Source: an uncultured Ruficoccus sp. (GTDB lineage Bacteria; Verrucomicrobiota; Verrucomicrobiia; Opitutales; Cerasicoccaceae). Taken from it: DNA of 64,000 nucleotides. Positions within the stretch are counted from its first letter, which is position 1; each line of letters opens with the position of its first letter. Position numbers: made by a program. Where the stretch lies: contig OZ223497.1 in NCBI GenBank assembly GCA_965140785.1, positions 224,001 through 288,000 on the forward strand, written 5' to 3'. Shown in pieces: positions 18,001 to 24,000 of this stretch.

Positions 18001-21000
18001 CGGAGTACTCGGGGTAATTCGGGCTGCAGGTGAGCATGGCCACGCTGACCTCCTCGGGGATGCGGGCGCCCAGCTCGGACAGGATGCCCGCCACGTGCCA
18101 GTTGAGGGAGATGACGCCATCGGGTTTGTGTTTTTGGAACCAGGCCTTGATCTCCTTTTTATACAGGTCGTCGAGCAGGAGGGGAGGGATGCTCATTTTT
18201 TTTCCACCCGTATGCAGCGTGTGGGTCCGTTCATACGCGGCGCTGATTCGGTAGTGGCTTTGAGGTTCGTGGAACTTCTTGCACAGCAAGCCGATGCGCC
18301 GGCAACCGCGCTCCCACAACTTCTCATAGGCCAGGCAGGTGTTGCCAAAGAAGTCTTCCGCCACACAGTGCAACTGGTGCGGGGCAACATTGTAGTTGAT
18401 CGTGGTGACAGCGAAGTCTTCCCAGGGCATGTTGATGACCGCGGTGTGCCGCATCCACGGTAAAATAATGATCCCCCGTACGCCCCGCTGACTCAGCATG
18501 TCCGAGAAGCGCTTGGAGGTGAGGTTGGGTTCGCTGTACCAGAGGATGTTCGGGAAAAAGCCCAGCTTCTGGCAACGGGAGCGGATGCCGGAGATCAGCC
18601 GGGCGTCGCTTTCAAACTCCATCCATCCGTTGCGCTCGGGAAAGGTGTGGACGATGGCTAGCGCCGACTGCAGGGAGAGCGGCCGGGATTGCCGGACATG
18701 GCTCATCAGCGCGCTCACATGGGGATTGTTGCGGTAGCCCAATCGGTCGGCTATTTCCTGGATACGCTGCCGGGTGGCTTCGGCCACATCCGGGTGATTA
18801 CGCAGAGCCATGGAGACAGTGGCCGTCGTCATCTTTGCCTCTTGGGCAATGGTTTTGAGCGTCACATGGGCCATAGGGTAGGGGATTTTAACGAATTAAA
18901 AGGTGCTGGCCTTGTTCCTGTCAAGGTTGTGGGGTAGGCTTTTATGCATCCTAAGGCGATGTCAATTTCGTCTGAAATTCTTTTAACCCCGACAACTCTT
19001 ATCTTTGCGATGATCACCCCAAGTTTGTATAAAACCTTTCCTTCGATCCTGGCTGGACTGGCCCTGTGTGCCAGCTCCCTGTCGGCTCTCCATGCCGCTG
19101 TCCCTCAACGCGATAAGCTCGTGCTTGAGCTTACCTTTGACGAGGCCGGAGAAGCGGGCTCGAAAACCCTCGACGCGTCCGGTCAGGCCGCCGATCTCCG
19201 CGGGGAGCCGGGAAGCGGCGTCGATGGACGCGCGTTCGACAACACGGGCTCCTCCACCATGGGCGGCAACAACCAACATCCCGGCGAAGGCGGGCAGGTG
19301 AAGATCGCCAATGGCTCCGAGCTGCTGGCCGGGGCCAAGTCCTTCACCCTGCAGGGCTGGTATCGTACTCAAGAGGGCGAAAAACCGGGCAACTACGCGC
19401 GGCTGCTTGCCAGCGCCCGCGTCTCCAGCTATTTCGATAGCGCCAAGGGCAAGGGACTGGTCATCTCCGTCAACCGCGATCACTGCCTGAGCCCGGACGG
19501 GGCCTATCGTCTGCCCGGCGAATGGGTCTTTTTCGCCATCACCTACGACGGCACCAAGGACAGCGACAACGTCTGCTATTACGTCGGCTCAGCCCGGGCC
19601 GAGGTGAGACTGGTCGGGCGGGACAGCATGGCGGCGGGTGAGGTTTCCACCAGCGGTTCTTCGCAGGCGATGATTATCGGTAATGTCGGCTCTGGCGATC
19701 GTCCGTTTGATGGACTGCTGGATAATTTCCGCTTGTGGGTGGATAAGGGAGGGACCGGCGCCGTGCTTTCGAAGAGCGAGCTGGAGCAGGTGCGCAAGTC
19801 CGATTCCTGAACCTCTCTCGCCCCCCTTTACCCCGAAGGACATCATGTTTTCTCTTTATGCTCAACGATTTCCCGACCGGCGACCTGACAGGCCCCGGAC
19901 GGGATTCAGCTTGATCGAGCTGCTGACGGTGATTGCCGTGGTGGCGGTGTTGGCTTCGCTGGTGGTCGCCGGACTGAGCAAAATCAAGGTCACGGCGATG
20001 AAGTCCGAGGCCACTGCCAATCTGCGTCAAATCGGGACGGCTGTCCTCGCCTTTGCCAACGAGCACAACGGCACGCTGCCTGGCCCCAGTTCGCTCGGAT
20101 TGGTTCCTTACTATTACAATCCCTATCCGCGTGACCGGTCGATGCAGGCGGCGATTGCTCCCTACTTGGGGATTTCGCCGGACTCGGTCCCCAGGCAGGG
20201 GAGGGATCATGTTTTCGTGCCCCAACTGGTTTGCCCGGCGGCTTCCAAACTCGTGGACGATCCGGACCACCCGCCGCCTTACTACGTGCAGAACTTTACC
20301 CTGCCAATTCCGCGGGGGCGTATCTTCGGCGCGCAGGCCTGGGGCGAATCCGATGCGGTCGACGGCTGGATGCTCTCGCGTATCGAGCAGTTGGGCCAAA
20401 GCGGAAAAATCTGGCTCCTGACGAATTTGGACCAGGCCCTGCCGTCCGACTGGTCCGGCATCGGCACCGGGAGTATCAGCTCGTCGGGTTGGTTCAGCCG
20501 CCTGCCGGAAGCCCCGGTGTGGGGGGACGGGCGCCTGCGCCTGTATCTGGACGGCCATGTCGATTTTGTCCCCCGGGCTACAGAACCTTGAGAAATGAAC
20601 CCGTTGCGGCCCCTCGCGGCCAACCCCTTTTATGATAAACTTAGATCGAAAAATGCTTTCCCTGCTGGTGACGCTGTGTGCCGCTCCGCTCTGGGGCCAG
20701 GCCGACGAAGTCCTTTTTCAAGACGGCTTTGAATCGGGCCTGGGCTCGTGGGTGGTGACCGAAGACGACCCCATCAGCACCGTCCACCCGAAGGCAGCCC
20801 ATACCGGCGAACGCGGACTCCTGCTCAATGACGAGTACGACAATGCCGGCTCCTCCGTCTCCACCCCCCGCTTCCCGGTCGATCCCGAGATGGGCTACCG
20901 GCTGACTTTCTGGGCCCGGTCGGTGGAGGGAAATGGCGCGGGCGTTTACCTGCGCTTCTTCGACCAGAACGGGCGTCAGCTCCGAAGCGGCAGCGACATG

Positions 21001-24000
21001 CAGTCCATCTCCGGTGAGTCCTGGCGCGAGTACCGTTTGGAGGCTTACCCGCCGGAAGGCGCGGTCGAGGTGGAGGGCTGGGTCCACTCCTACAACGGTG
21101 CTACCGTGGTCGTCGTGCTGGATGATGTCGTGTTGGAATCCTTTGTCCCGCAGATCGCGCCGCCCTGGGAGTCCACTTATAAACTCACGCCCGACGATCC
21201 GCTGACAGCGGCGGATGTCCCGGGCCCGGATGGACTGGTCTATCCCGACTGGCGCATGTGCGGGATCGCCGGCGGCATCCCGGCGGTCAAGACCGTGATC
21301 GGACCCGAGCGCTTCGCCGGGATGGAGGGCAAGGACATTGCCCCGCTGATTAACACCGCACTGGATGAAGCCGCCGCCCAGGGCGGGGGAGCAGTAGAGT
21401 TGCCTGCCGGTGAATTCCTCCTGGAGAGCCCCGTGCTCATCCAGCATTCCGGCGTGGTGCTGCGTGGAGCCGGGCGCGACGAAACCCGACTGATTTACCA
21501 GGAGCACATTCCCTACGGTGAGTTGCGCGCCCGTTGCTGGACGCCCTCCGGTGTCATCGGGCCGAACGGCTTTTTCGAAATTCAGGCCAATCCCAAAGAC
21601 CTCGTTCTGCTCCGGGCGACCAGCGGCGATACCGTCATTTACGACCGCGACCGTAGCGCGCACTGGGGGAACCGTTTCGGTATGCGTTTTCGCGGCAAGG
21701 ATGTGTTGGAAGCCCTCGGGCCGGGCACGCACCCGGCCAAGGCCGAGATCGCCTACGCCAATGGAGATACCTTCACCGAGGAGTTCGAGATAAGGGTTTC
21801 TGAGGAAGAGCAGCCCGACGATCTCTGGATCGATCAGCACGGGGCGATCATGGCGGTGGGCCGCGGGCCCACCGGCCCCGAGATCAAGCTGACCGCCACC
21901 TCCGAACGCGGCAGCAACCAGCTCCATCTGCCAGCAGACCACGGCTTAAAAACCGGCGATCGGATCATGATTCTGGCCCCCACTACCGACCGCTGGAATG
22001 CCCTGACCGGCAACACCTGCCCCTGGGGTACTTTTCGCAGCAACTACCTCGAAGTCACCGCTGTCGATGGCGGCACGGTGACGGTGAACCAGCCCTTCCG
22101 AATCGACTTCCCGGTCGAGGACGGCACCTACGTGCAGAAGGTCGGCGTGGTTGAAAATGTCGGCGTCGAGGACCTCACGGTGGAGCAAAAGGTTTTTACC
22201 ACCGAGCTGGTCGGCCCGCGCATCCCCGCCACCCTGTGGTACCCGATGGAGGACCTCTGGGCCAATGGGGTGACCTTCTCCCACGGTTGGAACAGCTGGG
22301 TTCGCGGGGTCAAGGTCGTCAACTCCGGGCGCAACCCCCTTTACCTGACGCGGTCAAAGTTCTGCGAGATCCGCGACTGTATCGCCGACCGGGCGATCTT
22401 CCGTGGGGGTGGCGGTACCGGCTACGTGGGCTTCGAGCGCTCCTACGACTGCCTCATGGACACCATAAGCACCTACACCATGCGCCACGCTCCGGACCTG
22501 CAATGGGGCTCGGCGGGCAATGTCGTGCGCAACGGCCACTTCGTCGGAAGCGATGCGCAGTGGCACGCCGGTTGGACGCACGAGAACCTCTTCGAGAACA
22601 ACGTGATCGAGCAGACCAAGGACAACATTGGCGACGGCACCTACGGGCACGCCTTCTTCGCCACCGGCCCGAGTGACTCGGCGCACGGGCCGCAGGGCCC
22701 GCGCAACGTCATTTACAACAACGATGCCACCGCCCCGAAGAGCGGCTTCGTCATGCTCGGCGGCAACGAGGCCTGGCTCATCCTCTACAATCGCCTCGTG
22801 CTCGAAGAGGGCCGGGCCGTGTACGCCAAGGAGATGAGCTTCGACCACATCATCGCCTACAACACCTTTGTCCTGCCCGGCTCCCAGGGGCCGGCCATCC
22901 TGATCGGTTCCGCGAACTGCACGGGGATCGAGATCTACGACAACAAATTCTACGGACCGGTCGAGGAAGTGGCGGCGTTTGCCTCCGGCCTCGGCGAGTT
23001 CGAGTGGGTCGGGGACAACGAGATCCTGCCCATTCCCGCCGGGGGAGCCGCCTCTGTGCCGCGCCCGGAGCCGGCGGTCAAATCGATTTTCGAGTGGCAG
23101 CGTTCCCACTTGGAGCCGGTTGCCACCCATGTTTCACCCTGAAAAACCCAACCTCAAACGCATCAAGATCATGATTCACAAAAAAATCTTCACCGTACTT
23201 TTGACCGCAGTCGCGGGGAGCCTGCTGCACGGGCAGACCCTGCTCTACGAGTTCCAGTTCAATGACCCGGCCAACGGCACCAACACCGTCGGCACCGGCA
23301 ACCCCGGCGGAACCGCCGCCTTCACGAATAACAACAATGTCGATCACGACGATTTAGCCGCCGACTTGCACGGCTCTGCTGGCAGCGGCGTTTCCGGAAG
23401 CGCAGGCGACTATGCCTTCGACAATACCGTTTCCAGCCAGATGGGTGGTAACAATTCCAACCCGGGTTACGGCGGCATAGCCTCAATTACCAATGGGGCT
23501 TTGCCTCTCGACGGCATGGGTTCCTTCACCGTTTCCGGCTGGTACTCTAGCTCAAGCACAATCGGCAACTATGCCCGCTTGATCGAGGTCGGTAGCACCG
23601 GTGTGTGGTTTCAAGGATCGACCCTGCAACTGAGTACAAACGTAACGGGGGGTAGTGGCCAAAAGCTGGCCAGTGGGGACAACTCACTGCTCACTACTAA
23701 CACTTGGCACTTCTTCGCATTCACTTATGACGGTGCCACCGGCACGGCCACGCTCTACGCCGGGACAGATGCAGACTCCGTGGGTTTCATCGTCTCCGAC
23801 ACACTTGCCTCCGGCGATGTCTCCCTCGGCTCGGGTGTTAACCTAGCGATCGGCAACTCCAACTTCAACGATCACCAGCGTCCCTTTGACGGCCTCCTGG
23901 ACAACTACCGGGTCTGGGCCAGCGAAGATTCCTCCGGTGCACTCAGCATGAGCGCCCTGGAAGCTGTCCGCGCCGGTGACGTGATCCCCGAGCCATCCAC

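Follow-up and report, generated by a model that had tools for sequence, protein, structure and literature searches.

Solitary prepilin genes within the glycan loci of a Ruficoccus genome: candidate locus-specific pilin-like adaptors

Minor pilins prime filaments and present cargo or adhesins, and glycans are taken up into the periplasm in PVC bacteria; a study of Planctomycetes reportedly connects pilus-type fibres with glycan attachment or uptake. In the Akkermansiaceae, excerpts of a published account describe a type IV-like pilus locus that serves glycan attachment and propose pilus-type fibres for glycan attachment or uptake (PMC13174399), and the MUL2 locus of Akkermansia appears in excerpts of this and a further account as a type IV-like pilus locus for attachment to mucin and fucoidan (PMC13174399, PMC12418764). 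For the planctomycete T. immobilis, excerpts of another report record 25 of 91 proteins with N_methyl and SBP_bac_10 domains in detergent-soluble membrane fractions (PMC8567305). The literature that we searched assigned no function to the H-X9-DG/DUF1559 family and drew no link between it and glycan loci, PEP-CTERM or LamG partners.

We analysed a 64-kb stretch of DNA from an uncultured Ruficoccus sp. (the window), in which the genome-wide survey's note had described a lectin-like gene, a prepilin gene and a large-protein gene standing side by side. This cassette is indeed present at positions 19010-23142, where three genes on one strand encode in turn a lectin-like protein of the LamG type, a prepilin of 248 aa and a protein of 836 aa. 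The features of the region are as follows.

16728..17834, minus strand: the second of two LacI-family regulators, divergent from the cassette (PF00356 LacI, E 2.3e-12)
17834..18874, minus strand: LacI-family regulator directly divergent from the cassette (LacI, E 3.7e-11; Peripla_BP_3, E 1.8e-13)
19010..19810, plus strand: g02077, secreted LamG (concanavalin-A-like) lectin-like protein, 266 aa (Laminin_G_3, E 3.6e-10)
19845..20591, plus strand: g02078, solitary prepilin-type protein, 248 aa (N_methyl, E 9.8e-6; TIGR02532, E 4.5e-6)
20632..23142, plus strand: g02079, exported 836-aa protein (sub-threshold CBM_4_9 and Beta_helix matches only; AF2 model)
23171..24061, plus strand: g02080, second LamG protein, with a PEP-CTERM sorting tail (Laminin_G_3, E 7.9e-13; PEP-CTERM, E 6.7e-5)
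24141..24179, plus strand: two terminator-like hairpins 3' of the last cassette gene (consensus match only)
38040..38729, minus strand: second solitary tail-type prepilin of the window, 229 aa (TIGR02532 six-frame search, ORF extraction)

The intergenic gaps of the cassette, taken from the coordinates, are 34 nt (g02077/g02078) and 40 nt (g02078/g02079), and 135 nt separate it from the nearer LacI gene. The second prepilin has a LacI gene on one side and a PEP-CTERM-like gene (297 aa) on the other, followed by MFS and sulfatase genes. In grouping a regulator, a surface glycan-binding protein and enzymes per substrate, the arrangement resembles a Bacteroidota PUL (SusC/SusD); however, profile search found neither a SusC-like TonB-dependent transporter nor SusD in the cassette, and the prepilin/lectin pair takes the place of SusC/D by positional analogy only, with no homology. 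MUL2 connects a pilus-type system of a verrucomicrobium with the acquisition of glycans, yet by its description in the excerpts it is a single conserved four-gene locus (PilM and an archaeal-type, amuc_1102-type pilin) rather than a set of dispersed locus-specific subunits. With T2SS pseudopilins (GspG and the minor GspH, I, J and K) and type IV minor pilins, g02078 shares the leader, F at +1, E at +5, a hydrophobic alpha-1 helix and, in its model, a probably pilin-like alpha-beta head. Unlike them, genes of the g02078 type stand singly, away from ATPase, platform and secretin genes, occur in about 47 copies, and encode a head domain of about 175 aa with conserved motifs of its own.

The leader of g02078 is 20 aa long, with predicted cleavage at G|F and E at +5, and its C-terminal tail is W-x9-DGHV, W replacing the H of the motif. 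TIGR02532 matches above its model cut-off, and the GspG model TIGR01710 reached 23.5 bits against a cut-off of 88.85, over the helix only (residues 20-79). The survey's note had classed these proteins as DUF1559-type with an H-X9-DG motif. For g02078 this label rests on homology, because the protein gave no match to PF07596 (DUF1559/SBP_bac_10) or TIGR04294 (H-X9-DG) at E <= 0.01, while 26 of its 52 aligned homologues match PF07596 at that threshold and 14 match TIGR04294; g02078 is thus a divergent relative and not a scored member. Its AF2 model (pLDDT 78.4) consists of a helix at 23-73, the 50-residue alpha-1, and a small sheet. VIA-align placed only type IV pilins and pseudopilins in its best 17 rows, EpsG, PulG, PilV, PilE, FimU and PilX among the best, at modest Z values of 5.4-3; Foldseek returned nothing at E <= 0.001, and the ESM Atlas neighbours all fall in N_methyl plus SBP_bac_10 clusters. 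This model suggests a pilin-type fold.

Across the genome, a six-frame TIGR02532 search gave 66 matches (TIGR04294 gave 15 and PF07596 9), and ORF extraction yielded 66 prepilin ORFs: 49 carry a C-terminal D[GW][HS] tail, 50 are solitary, in that the 2 genes on either side include no further prepilin, and 47 are both, 3 of these on the odd-GC contig C20. The numbers reported earlier were 60 prepilin genes and 48 solitary ones; we called genes with a crude home-made program, so that distances in genes could deviate a little from those of the earlier gene table. The 47 proteins that are both solitary and tailed form a single family in alignment, with a median pairwise identity of 24%. Position -1 is G in 29 and A in 18, +1 is F in 44 and L in 3, +5 is E in all 47, and P stands at +22 in 22; the R61-equivalent is conserved in 96% and core Y and P positions in 87-94%, and in the tail D is found in 100%, G in 89% and the upstream H in 62%. 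By sequence, the proteins retain all features of type IV pilin precursors. The best explanation of the tail-type paralogues is that they belong to the H-X9-DG (TIGR04294)/DUF1559 (PF07596) superfamily, greatly expanded in Planctomycetota, Verrucomicrobiota and Lentisphaerota, with which they share a class III leader, an NLRQIG-like core motif, an x9-DG[H/S]V tail and the large dispersed expansion itself; g02078 departs from it in falling below both models and in its W for H.

We examined the context of these genes by Pfam search of 291 neighbour proteins and a domain search of the cassette locus, classifying the loci by hand. A GH, PL or sulfatase gene lies within +-3 genes of 33 of the 50 solitary prepilins (the locus at 19010-23142 being left ambiguous), and 38 loci qualify if CBM-only, GDSL-only and BNR cases are counted. 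Among 20 random gene centres, a small control sample, the corresponding numbers were 4 and 6 (Fisher, p = 6e-4 strict and 7e-4 lenient), and 3 of the 4 positive controls themselves adjoin a prepilin gene. The earlier statement that two thirds of the solitary prepilins lie near a glycan enzyme is therefore borne out. So is the proximity of regulators, with operon-like runs beside sugar-type regulators; 24 of the 50 loci have a LacI/GntR/AraC-type gene at most 3 genes away (hand count). The upstream gene is on the same strand in 37 of the 47 tail-type prepilins (gap <= 150 nt in 34) and the downstream gene in 35. PEP-CTERM-like genes, recognised by a crude regex, are directly adjacent 16 times against 2.26 expected, a seven-fold enrichment (p = 3e-10), and 13 of the 16 are upstream. 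The prepilin is usually 3' of an exported non-enzymatic protein (LamG, CBM, PEP-CTERM) and often 5' of a large exported glycan enzyme.

The AF2 model of g02079 (pLDDT 92.4, pTM 0.90) has an N-terminal CBM16/CBM4_9-like sandwich and a right-handed beta-helix. At E 1e-11 to 1e-10, Foldseek matched it to capsule depolymerases of phages and to the K1 capsule lyase; further matches were GH87, GH110 and, at TMt 0.74-0.76, CBM16. The protein, whose family has 1691 representatives, is accordingly modelled as a putative polysaccharide depolymerase-like protein of CBM and beta-helix. As for the LamG partners, 6 of the 8 strongest matches to the subfamily in this genome lie within 2 genes of a prepilin. 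Of 20 LamG-subfamily genes from other genomes of the family, just 4 are immediately followed by a prepilin gene. We found no fused pilin-lectin or pilin-enzyme forms, which is weak evidence.

The order LamG, prepilin, 836-aa protein, LamG/PEP-CTERM is retained in two relatives, G002 and G013, the latter of another genus, where the orthologues of g02077 in the same position show 63% and 52% identity, respectively. Over the three cassette genes dN/dS is 0.20-0.24 (g02077 0.24, g02078 0.20). On contig C50, the paralogue nearest to g02078 (56% identity) again precedes a paralogue of g02079 (48%), and a homologous neighbour is shared by 6 of the 20 most similar prepilin pairs versus 44 of 1061 other pairs (p = 1.7e-4). 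The prepilins are duplicated along with the genes beside them. The cassette is not invariable: neither the orthologue of g02079 in a further genome (G011) nor its paralogue in this genome (C10:407391) has an adjacent prepilin. Among 15 tail-type prepilins sampled from two relatives, a PEP-CTERM gene was upstream in 2, both in the same genus, and in 0 of 7 in the other genus. PEP-CTERM adjacency, conservation of the cassette in another genus and co-duplication with neighbours are new here.

The survey's note had read the prepilins as substrate-induced pseudopilin subunits supplied by each glycan locus to one shared machine, a mechanism that we consider plausible but unproven. The subunit part accords with the class III leader, the pilin-type fold model, the one prepilin peptidase gene (Peptidase_A24) and the regulators and glycan enzymes nearby. 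A single machine is not supported, as 7 T2SSE-type ATPases, 5 secretins and 4 platform genes point to several filament machines; the genome also has three exosortase loci. Our preferred explanation, which we think stands at about even chances, is that g02078 and some 46 paralogues represent type IV pilin-like proteins, each specific to its locus, acting as adaptors between the products of a glycan locus and a filament machine. The single peptidase would cleave them to minor (pseudo)pilins in the inner membrane, and these would be taken up by a type IV filament machine of the cell together with its secretin. Each pilin may then serve as its own locus's adaptor for the lectin-like protein and/or enzyme encoded with it, or for glycan bound by these, and could couple that partner or glycan to outer-membrane passage or display.

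A rather unlikely alternative is that these proteins stay out of filaments altogether and are periplasmic proteins with a pilin anchor. The class III signal would then do no more than position a small domain at the inner membrane, facing the periplasm, where it would serve nearby SSF, MFS or ABC importers in a locus-specific way as a scaffold, a chaperone or a factor that hands over oligosaccharides. The Pfam name 'SBP_bac_10' carries the same idea. Genes for such transporters do lie within 3 genes in many loci (for example L001-3, 6, 11, 22, 25, 27, 28, 49), the prepilin of L043 directly follows an ABC sugar importer, the T. immobilis counterparts occur in detergent-soluble membrane fractions (PMC8567305), and no T2SS or pilus-operon prepilin of this genome has a true DG[HS] tail. 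However, a charge in a plain membrane anchor is not expected to persist, and E at +5 and G or A at -1 are found in 47 of 47; moreover, the strongest neighbour signal comes from exported PEP-CTERM and lectin-like proteins, not from transporters. The survey's note had itself raised periplasmic binding proteins as an alternative, for which the fold searches offer no support: none occurs among the Foldseek rows or the 50 VIA-align rows listed, headed by pilins.

It is also conceivable, if improbable, that the pilin itself is the glycan receptor, its variable head binding the polysaccharide of the locus and type IV pilus retraction pulling the glycan to or through the secretin ('fishing'), with the neighbouring lectin-like proteins as independent surface proteins. 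The extreme divergence of the head domain around a conserved core would fit this, as would three PilT-size ATPases (389-396 aa) that could be retraction ATPases, the near absence of TonB-dependent receptors (3 Plug-domain matches, 2 on contaminant contig C9 and only 1 elsewhere) and the fibres proposed in excerpts on Akkermansiaceae (PMC13174399). Yet profile, Foldseek and VIA-align searches detected no carbohydrate-binding family or fold in g02078, and protein partners account better for the specific pairing with LamG, CBM and PEP-CTERM proteins and for the joint duplication with neighbours. That there is no functional link at all, the prepilin genes being simply numerous genes for exported proteins, gathered along with other accessory genes in variable regions where glycan loci lie too, we consider very improbable. 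About a fifth of random gene centres are also near a CAZyme, the repertoire turns over fast (only 4 of 14 prepilins sampled from two relatives have a best match of >55% identity here), and 11 of the 50 solitary prepilins, including those best conserved between genomes (pil14, pil15, pil56), are in non-glycan contexts; against this stand the enrichment over random centres, the operon-like spacing, the synteny across genera under purifying selection and the specific enrichment of PEP-CTERM neighbours.

In this marine-type Verrucomicrobium, some fifty pilin-like genes, each standing alone in a sugar-regulated glycan locus beside exported lectin-like proteins and enzymes, offer a testable role for a very large uncharacterised family, and the adaptor role that we prefer would matter in a bacterium with almost no TonB-dependent outer-membrane transporters. 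An unlikely wider extension of it is a modular 'pilin-PUL' of PVC bacteria, in which each glycan locus would bring a minor pilin and a lectin-like, often PEP-CTERM, partner to a shared type IV filament/secretin machine that replaces SusC/D- or TonB-type transport and exports enzymes and/or hauls glycan into the periplasm. If true, it would give a function to DUF1559, among the largest uncharacterised paralogue families in these phyla, and could supply a molecular basis for periplasmic glycan uptake.

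The cassette at window positions 19010-23142 comprises three genes, all on the plus strand, and thus bears out the order of lectin-like protein, prepilin and large protein that the genome-wide survey's note had proposed for g02077, g02078 and g02079. The features in and around it are the following (window positions):

6135-15716, minus strand: giant protein of 3193 aa with GH81 (endo-beta-1,3-glucanase type), six F5/8 type C and GH3 domains
16728-17834, minus strand: LacI gene, upstream of the cassette
17834-18874, minus strand: LacI gene, upstream of the cassette and divergent from g02077
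19010-19810, plus strand: g02077, 266 aa, signal-peptide-like N-terminus, Laminin_G_3 (E 3.6e-10)
19845-20591, plus strand: g02078, 248 aa, N_methyl (E 9.8e-6) and TIGR02532 (E 4.5e-6)
20632-23142, plus strand: g02079, 836 aa, with CBM_4_9, NosD and Beta_helix matches that are all sub-threshold in Pfam
23171-24061, plus strand: g02080, LamG protein with PEP-CTERM tail, downstream of g02079; the second LamG of the cassette
24141-24179, plus strand: terminator-like hairpins 3' of g02080
beyond the hairpins, convergent with the cassette: GFO/IDH/MocA oxidoreductase (Pfam)

The 3193-aa protein stands immediately past the two LacI genes, and with its GH81, F5/8 type C and GH3 domains it makes the neighbourhood of the cassette a glycan locus. 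The interval 18850-19030 was scanned for a LacI-type operator palindrome and a sigma-70-like promoter, and neither was found. Elsewhere in the window, an ORF of 2088 aa (30173-36439, minus strand) had no Pfam match at E <= 1e-5; a LacI gene on the opposite strand lies between it and the window's second solitary prepilin. A long same-strand run at 49673-60127 (minus strand), BatA/MoxR-like in character, comprises genes for a VWA-domain protein and a MoxR-type AAA ATPase as well as several that fit no family.

To place g02078 among the prepilins of its genome, we searched the assembly (4.36 Mb, 50 contigs) in six frames and extracted all 66 ORFs matching TIGR02532; the curated models TIGR04294 and PF07596 gave only 15 and 9 matches, respectively. 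Gene calls came from a home-made program that uses codon bias (3720 genes, 84% coding), a tail was defined as D[GW][HS] inside the last 70 residues, and a prepilin was considered solitary when no second one lay within 2 genes. By these rules 49 ORFs were tailed, 50 were solitary and 47 were both, a recount (66 and 50) that agrees with the 60 prepilins and 48 solitary genes reported by the survey. Fourteen of the 16 non-solitary ORFs fall in five clusters (contigs C18, C22, C25, C40 and C46), the C40 cluster adjoining a secretin and a GspE-type ATPase, and the other two are short uncalled ORFs. The true tail is absent from all 16 except a 49-aa ORF at C4:224810-224959, in which prepilin leader and helix are fused straight to a DGHV tail and which, from its sequence, looks like the remnant of an internally deleted prepilin; the tail match in one C18 gene is probably a chance match of the pattern. 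Six contigs (C9, C15, C20, C28, C41 and C44) have a GC content of 0.28-0.49 against ~0.6 elsewhere and are likely contaminant or foreign DNA. One of them, C20 (GC 0.47), bears three solitary prepilins, all of tail type, standing in GH20, heparinase and sulfatase loci.

The 47 tail-type proteins (prepilins with a C-terminal x9-DG[H/S]-like tail) form one alignable family with a median length of 234 aa and a median pairwise identity of only 24%. In their alignment the core residues R, P, Y, P and Y are conserved at 87-96%, and the tail residues D, G and H at 100%, 89% and 83%. Position -1 is G in 29 and A in 18, position +1 is F in 44 and L in 3, and 22 have P at +22. The N-terminus of g02078 follows this plan, with a basic leader of 20 residues, then G/F-S-L-I-E (the stroke marking the junction) and a hydrophobic helix. 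Its sub-type has a D-G or D-W tail; at the position of the upstream H, g02078 and the proteins most closely related to it carry W or Y (W in g02078), which is why g02078 falls under the cut-offs of both curated models. The H-X9-DG/DUF1559 label that the survey attached to it therefore rests on homology: of 52 aligned homologues, 26 match PF07596 and 14 TIGR04294. The ESM Atlas clusters nearest to it (score 0.97) all carry N_methyl and SBP_bac_10 and come from Planctomycetota, Verrucomicrobiota and Lentisphaerota.

The survey had obtained a poor model of g02078 (pLDDT 62); with an alignment of 52 sequences, AlphaFold2 instead returned pLDDT 78.4 and pTM 0.76, predicting a helix at residues 23-73 and a small sheet that finishes in the conserved tail strands. 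Foldseek found nothing for this model at E <= 0.001. In VIA-align the best 17 rows were all type IV pilins or pseudopilins (Z 5.4 to 3, aligned residues ~45-248), including the ETEC type IVb pilin, PilA4, ComP, EpsG, PilV, PulG, PilE, FimU and PilX. A profile built from the homologue alignment matched pilins among PDB sequences over the alpha-1 helix only. The predicted structure thus gives a modest but coherent signal of a pilin fold. A search for longer proteins found no fused forms of g02078 among 6025 candidates, which is weak evidence.

The protein family of g02079, the third gene of the cassette, is large and has no name (1691 representatives at E <= 1e-3, 177 at E <= 1e-30). The AlphaFold2 model of g02079, built on a 44-sequence alignment, reached pLDDT 92.4 and pTM 0.90, and Foldseek matched it to right-handed beta-helix polysaccharide depolymerases, namely the K1 capsule lyase and capsule depolymerases of Klebsiella phages (E 1e-11 to 1e-10) as well as tailspikes, GH87 and GH110, with the N-terminal 150 residues resembling CBM16 modules (TMt 0.74-0.76). 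On the strength of this model, we read g02079 as a putative exported CBM plus beta-helix depolymerase.

We examined the regions of three genes on either side of all 50 solitary prepilins, comparing the 291 neighbours with Pfam and classing the loci by hand. A GH, PL or sulfatase gene lay within 3 genes at 33 of the 50 (strict rule), and a lenient rule that adds the CBM-only loci L007, L036 and L050, the GDSL-only L008 and the BNR/sortilin locus L009 raised this to 38. The g02078 locus was left ambiguous in this count because g02079 is under the Pfam cut-offs, and 11 loci (L014, L015, L018, L021, L032, L033, L039, L040, L041, L047 and L048) are non-glycan. Of 20 gene centres drawn at random with a fixed seed, prepilins being left out, the strict rule picked out 4 and the lenient rule 6 (Fisher P = 6e-4 and 7e-4, respectively), and three of the four strict positives themselves adjoin a prepilin gene. 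The proximity to glycan enzymes claimed by the survey is thus upheld. By hand count, a LacI/GntR/AraC-type regulator lay within 3 genes at 24 of 50 prepilin loci and at 3 of 20 controls. The upstream gene is on the same strand for 37 of the 47 tail-type prepilins (gap <= 150 nt in 34) and the downstream gene for 35 (gap <= 150 nt in 24), so that these genes sit like operon members. Taken together, these results demonstrate one diverged pilin-like family that is placed operon-like inside glycan loci with sugar-type regulator genes.

Several loci drew attention for other features. At L043 (C48:27892-37812) an ABC sugar importer (SBP_bac_1 and two permeases) comes directly before a tail-type prepilin, beyond which lie a divergent LacI gene, an 833-aa family-less protein and GH66. 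L012:8048-10537 (contig C10, ~609.6-612.1 kb), which lies downstream of a prepilin/GH42 locus at a distance of three genes, encodes an 829-aa family B DNA polymerase of organellar/viral type (DNA_pol_B_2, E 9.5e-13), which may mark a mobile element. An SSF transporter broken into three ORFs (L011:5835-7429) and a TatC broken into two (L067:2886-3712) are frameshifts, pseudogenes or assembly errors.

The prepilins also have preferred partners, namely exported proteins of lectin-like or PEP-CTERM type, and enzymes. The LamG subfamily of g02077 has 14 matches in the genome, and of the eight strongest, six have a prepilin no more than 2 genes away. By a crude pattern, 86 of 3657 genes were PEP-CTERM positive; 16 of these directly adjoin a tail-type prepilin (2.26 expected, P = 3e-10) and 24 lie within 2 genes of one (4.5 expected, P = 3e-12). 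Thirteen of the 16 adjoining genes lie upstream of their prepilin, nine of them on its strand. A crude test detected signal peptides in 22 of the 37 upstream genes that share the prepilin's strand and in 15 of the 35 downstream ones, compared to 109 of 400 random genes. By these counts, what most specifically marks the neighbourhood of a prepilin is a gene directly upstream for an exported protein that is no enzyme and often carries PEP-CTERM. An exported enzyme is often encoded downstream; examples from the directly adjoining position are GH4, GH10, GH42, GH43-like, GH71, GH114, heparinase/DUF4962 and beta-helix proteins. The family-less upstream proteins cluster into many singletons and were not detectably LamG at E <= 1e-3 with our own LamG HMM.

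The cassettes are conserved and duplicated as cassettes. A full-length search found g02079 orthologues in 3 of 40 relatives (G002, 72% identity; G013, 63%; G011, 60%), and the order LamG, prepilin, 836-aa protein, LamG/PEP-CTERM is intact in G002, of the same genus, and in G013, of another genus, where the divergent LacI gene is present too. In G011 an esterase-like gene precedes the orthologue and no prepilin is adjacent. The dN/dS values against G002 were 0.24, 0.20 and 0.20 for g02077, g02078 and g02079; comparisons with G013 were saturated. Within the genome, the closest g02078 paralogue (C50, 56% identity) is followed by a g02079 paralogue (48%), and a third g02079 paralogue at C10:407391 (53%) is without a prepilin. 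Of the 20 prepilin pairs with the greatest similarity, 6 share a homologous neighbour within 2 genes, against 44 of 1061 other pairs (P = 1.7e-4); directly adjacent neighbours alone (2 of 14 versus 1 of 40) were not convincing, the wider test being clearer.

Among 15 other genomes of the taxonomic family, 4 of 20 LamG-subfamily genes had a prepilin directly downstream and one had it upstream. In the best 30 leader loci of G001 and G007, a PEP-CTERM-like gene stood upstream of 2 of 15 tail-type prepilins, both in G001 (0 of 7 in G007). Prepilin repertoires also turn over: only 4 of 14 sampled from relatives have a best match above 55% identity in the present genome, and three of these four match prepilins that stand in non-glycan contexts here (pil14, pil15 and pil56). 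These results weaken the generality of the cassette. The non-glycan prepilins of L014, L015 and L041 (C10:694130, C13:32226 and C47:73162), two of them longer at 293-300 aa, are the best conserved in relatives (56-71% identity) and may form a 'core' group whose role differs.

A single Peptidase_A24 gene was found in the genome (C26:19818-20192). The T2SSE-type ATPases number seven (three of PilT size, the other four of 567-614 aa), the secretins five and the platform genes four. These counts indicate several type IV filament machines rather than the one shared type II/type IV machine that the survey had envisaged. There are three exosortase loci. Only three Plug domains occur in the assembly, and two of these are on C9 (GC 0.39), leaving a single TonB-dependent receptor in the organism proper despite dozens of glycan loci. 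The genome therefore combines one prepilin peptidase and several filament machines with almost no TonB-dependent transport.

We propose that the prepilins would be processed and become part of a filament, each as the minor pilin of its own locus, where they would couple their neighbours, or glycan held by those neighbours, to an outer-membrane step; we regard this reading as a whole as evenly poised between right and wrong. The prepilins might instead have a non-filament periplasmic role near importers. All 47 tail-type prepilins have E at +5, which, from established pilin biology, argues for filament-type interactions over a plain anchor; we consider a non-filament role unlikely. No periplasmic binding protein appeared among the VIA-align rows listed for the g02078 model. 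The pilin head could also be the glycan receptor itself, which we find improbable. That the prepilins have no functional link to the glycan loci seems to us very improbable.

The DUF1559/H-X9-DG family and its expansion are already known (PMC2754498, PMC10632474, PMC4807772 and PMC5352709), and family sizes of 74 in R. baltica and 68 in P. limnophila are given among these papers. Many Planctomycetota, Verrucomicrobiota and Lentisphaerota have 40-100 such proteins in each genome. PMC8567305 reports 91 family proteins in T. immobilis, detection in membrane fractions, and flanking genes with signal peptides. PMC13174399 and PMC12418764 describe a type IV-like pilus serving glycan attachment in Akkermansiaceae, and PMC12037917 an increase of a Verrucomicrobiae prepilin-type peptide ahead of algal blooms. 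The literature found on DUF1559/H-X9-DG proteins assigns them no role, and in that on DUF1559, H-X9-DG, SBP_bac_10 and verrucomicrobial or planctomycete prepilins we found no tie to glycan loci, LamG or PEP-CTERM.

Planctomycetota, Verrucomicrobiota and Lentisphaerota have a major part in breaking down algal and host glycans, and to our knowledge they lack the SusC/D logic of Bacteroidota. One source names a homologue from Ruficoccus amylovorans, so the genus has cultured members and the idea is open to experiment. If true, polysaccharide use would have a new organising principle: each locus would supply a pilin of its own, through which lectin-like proteins and enzymes would be linked to a type IV filament machine.
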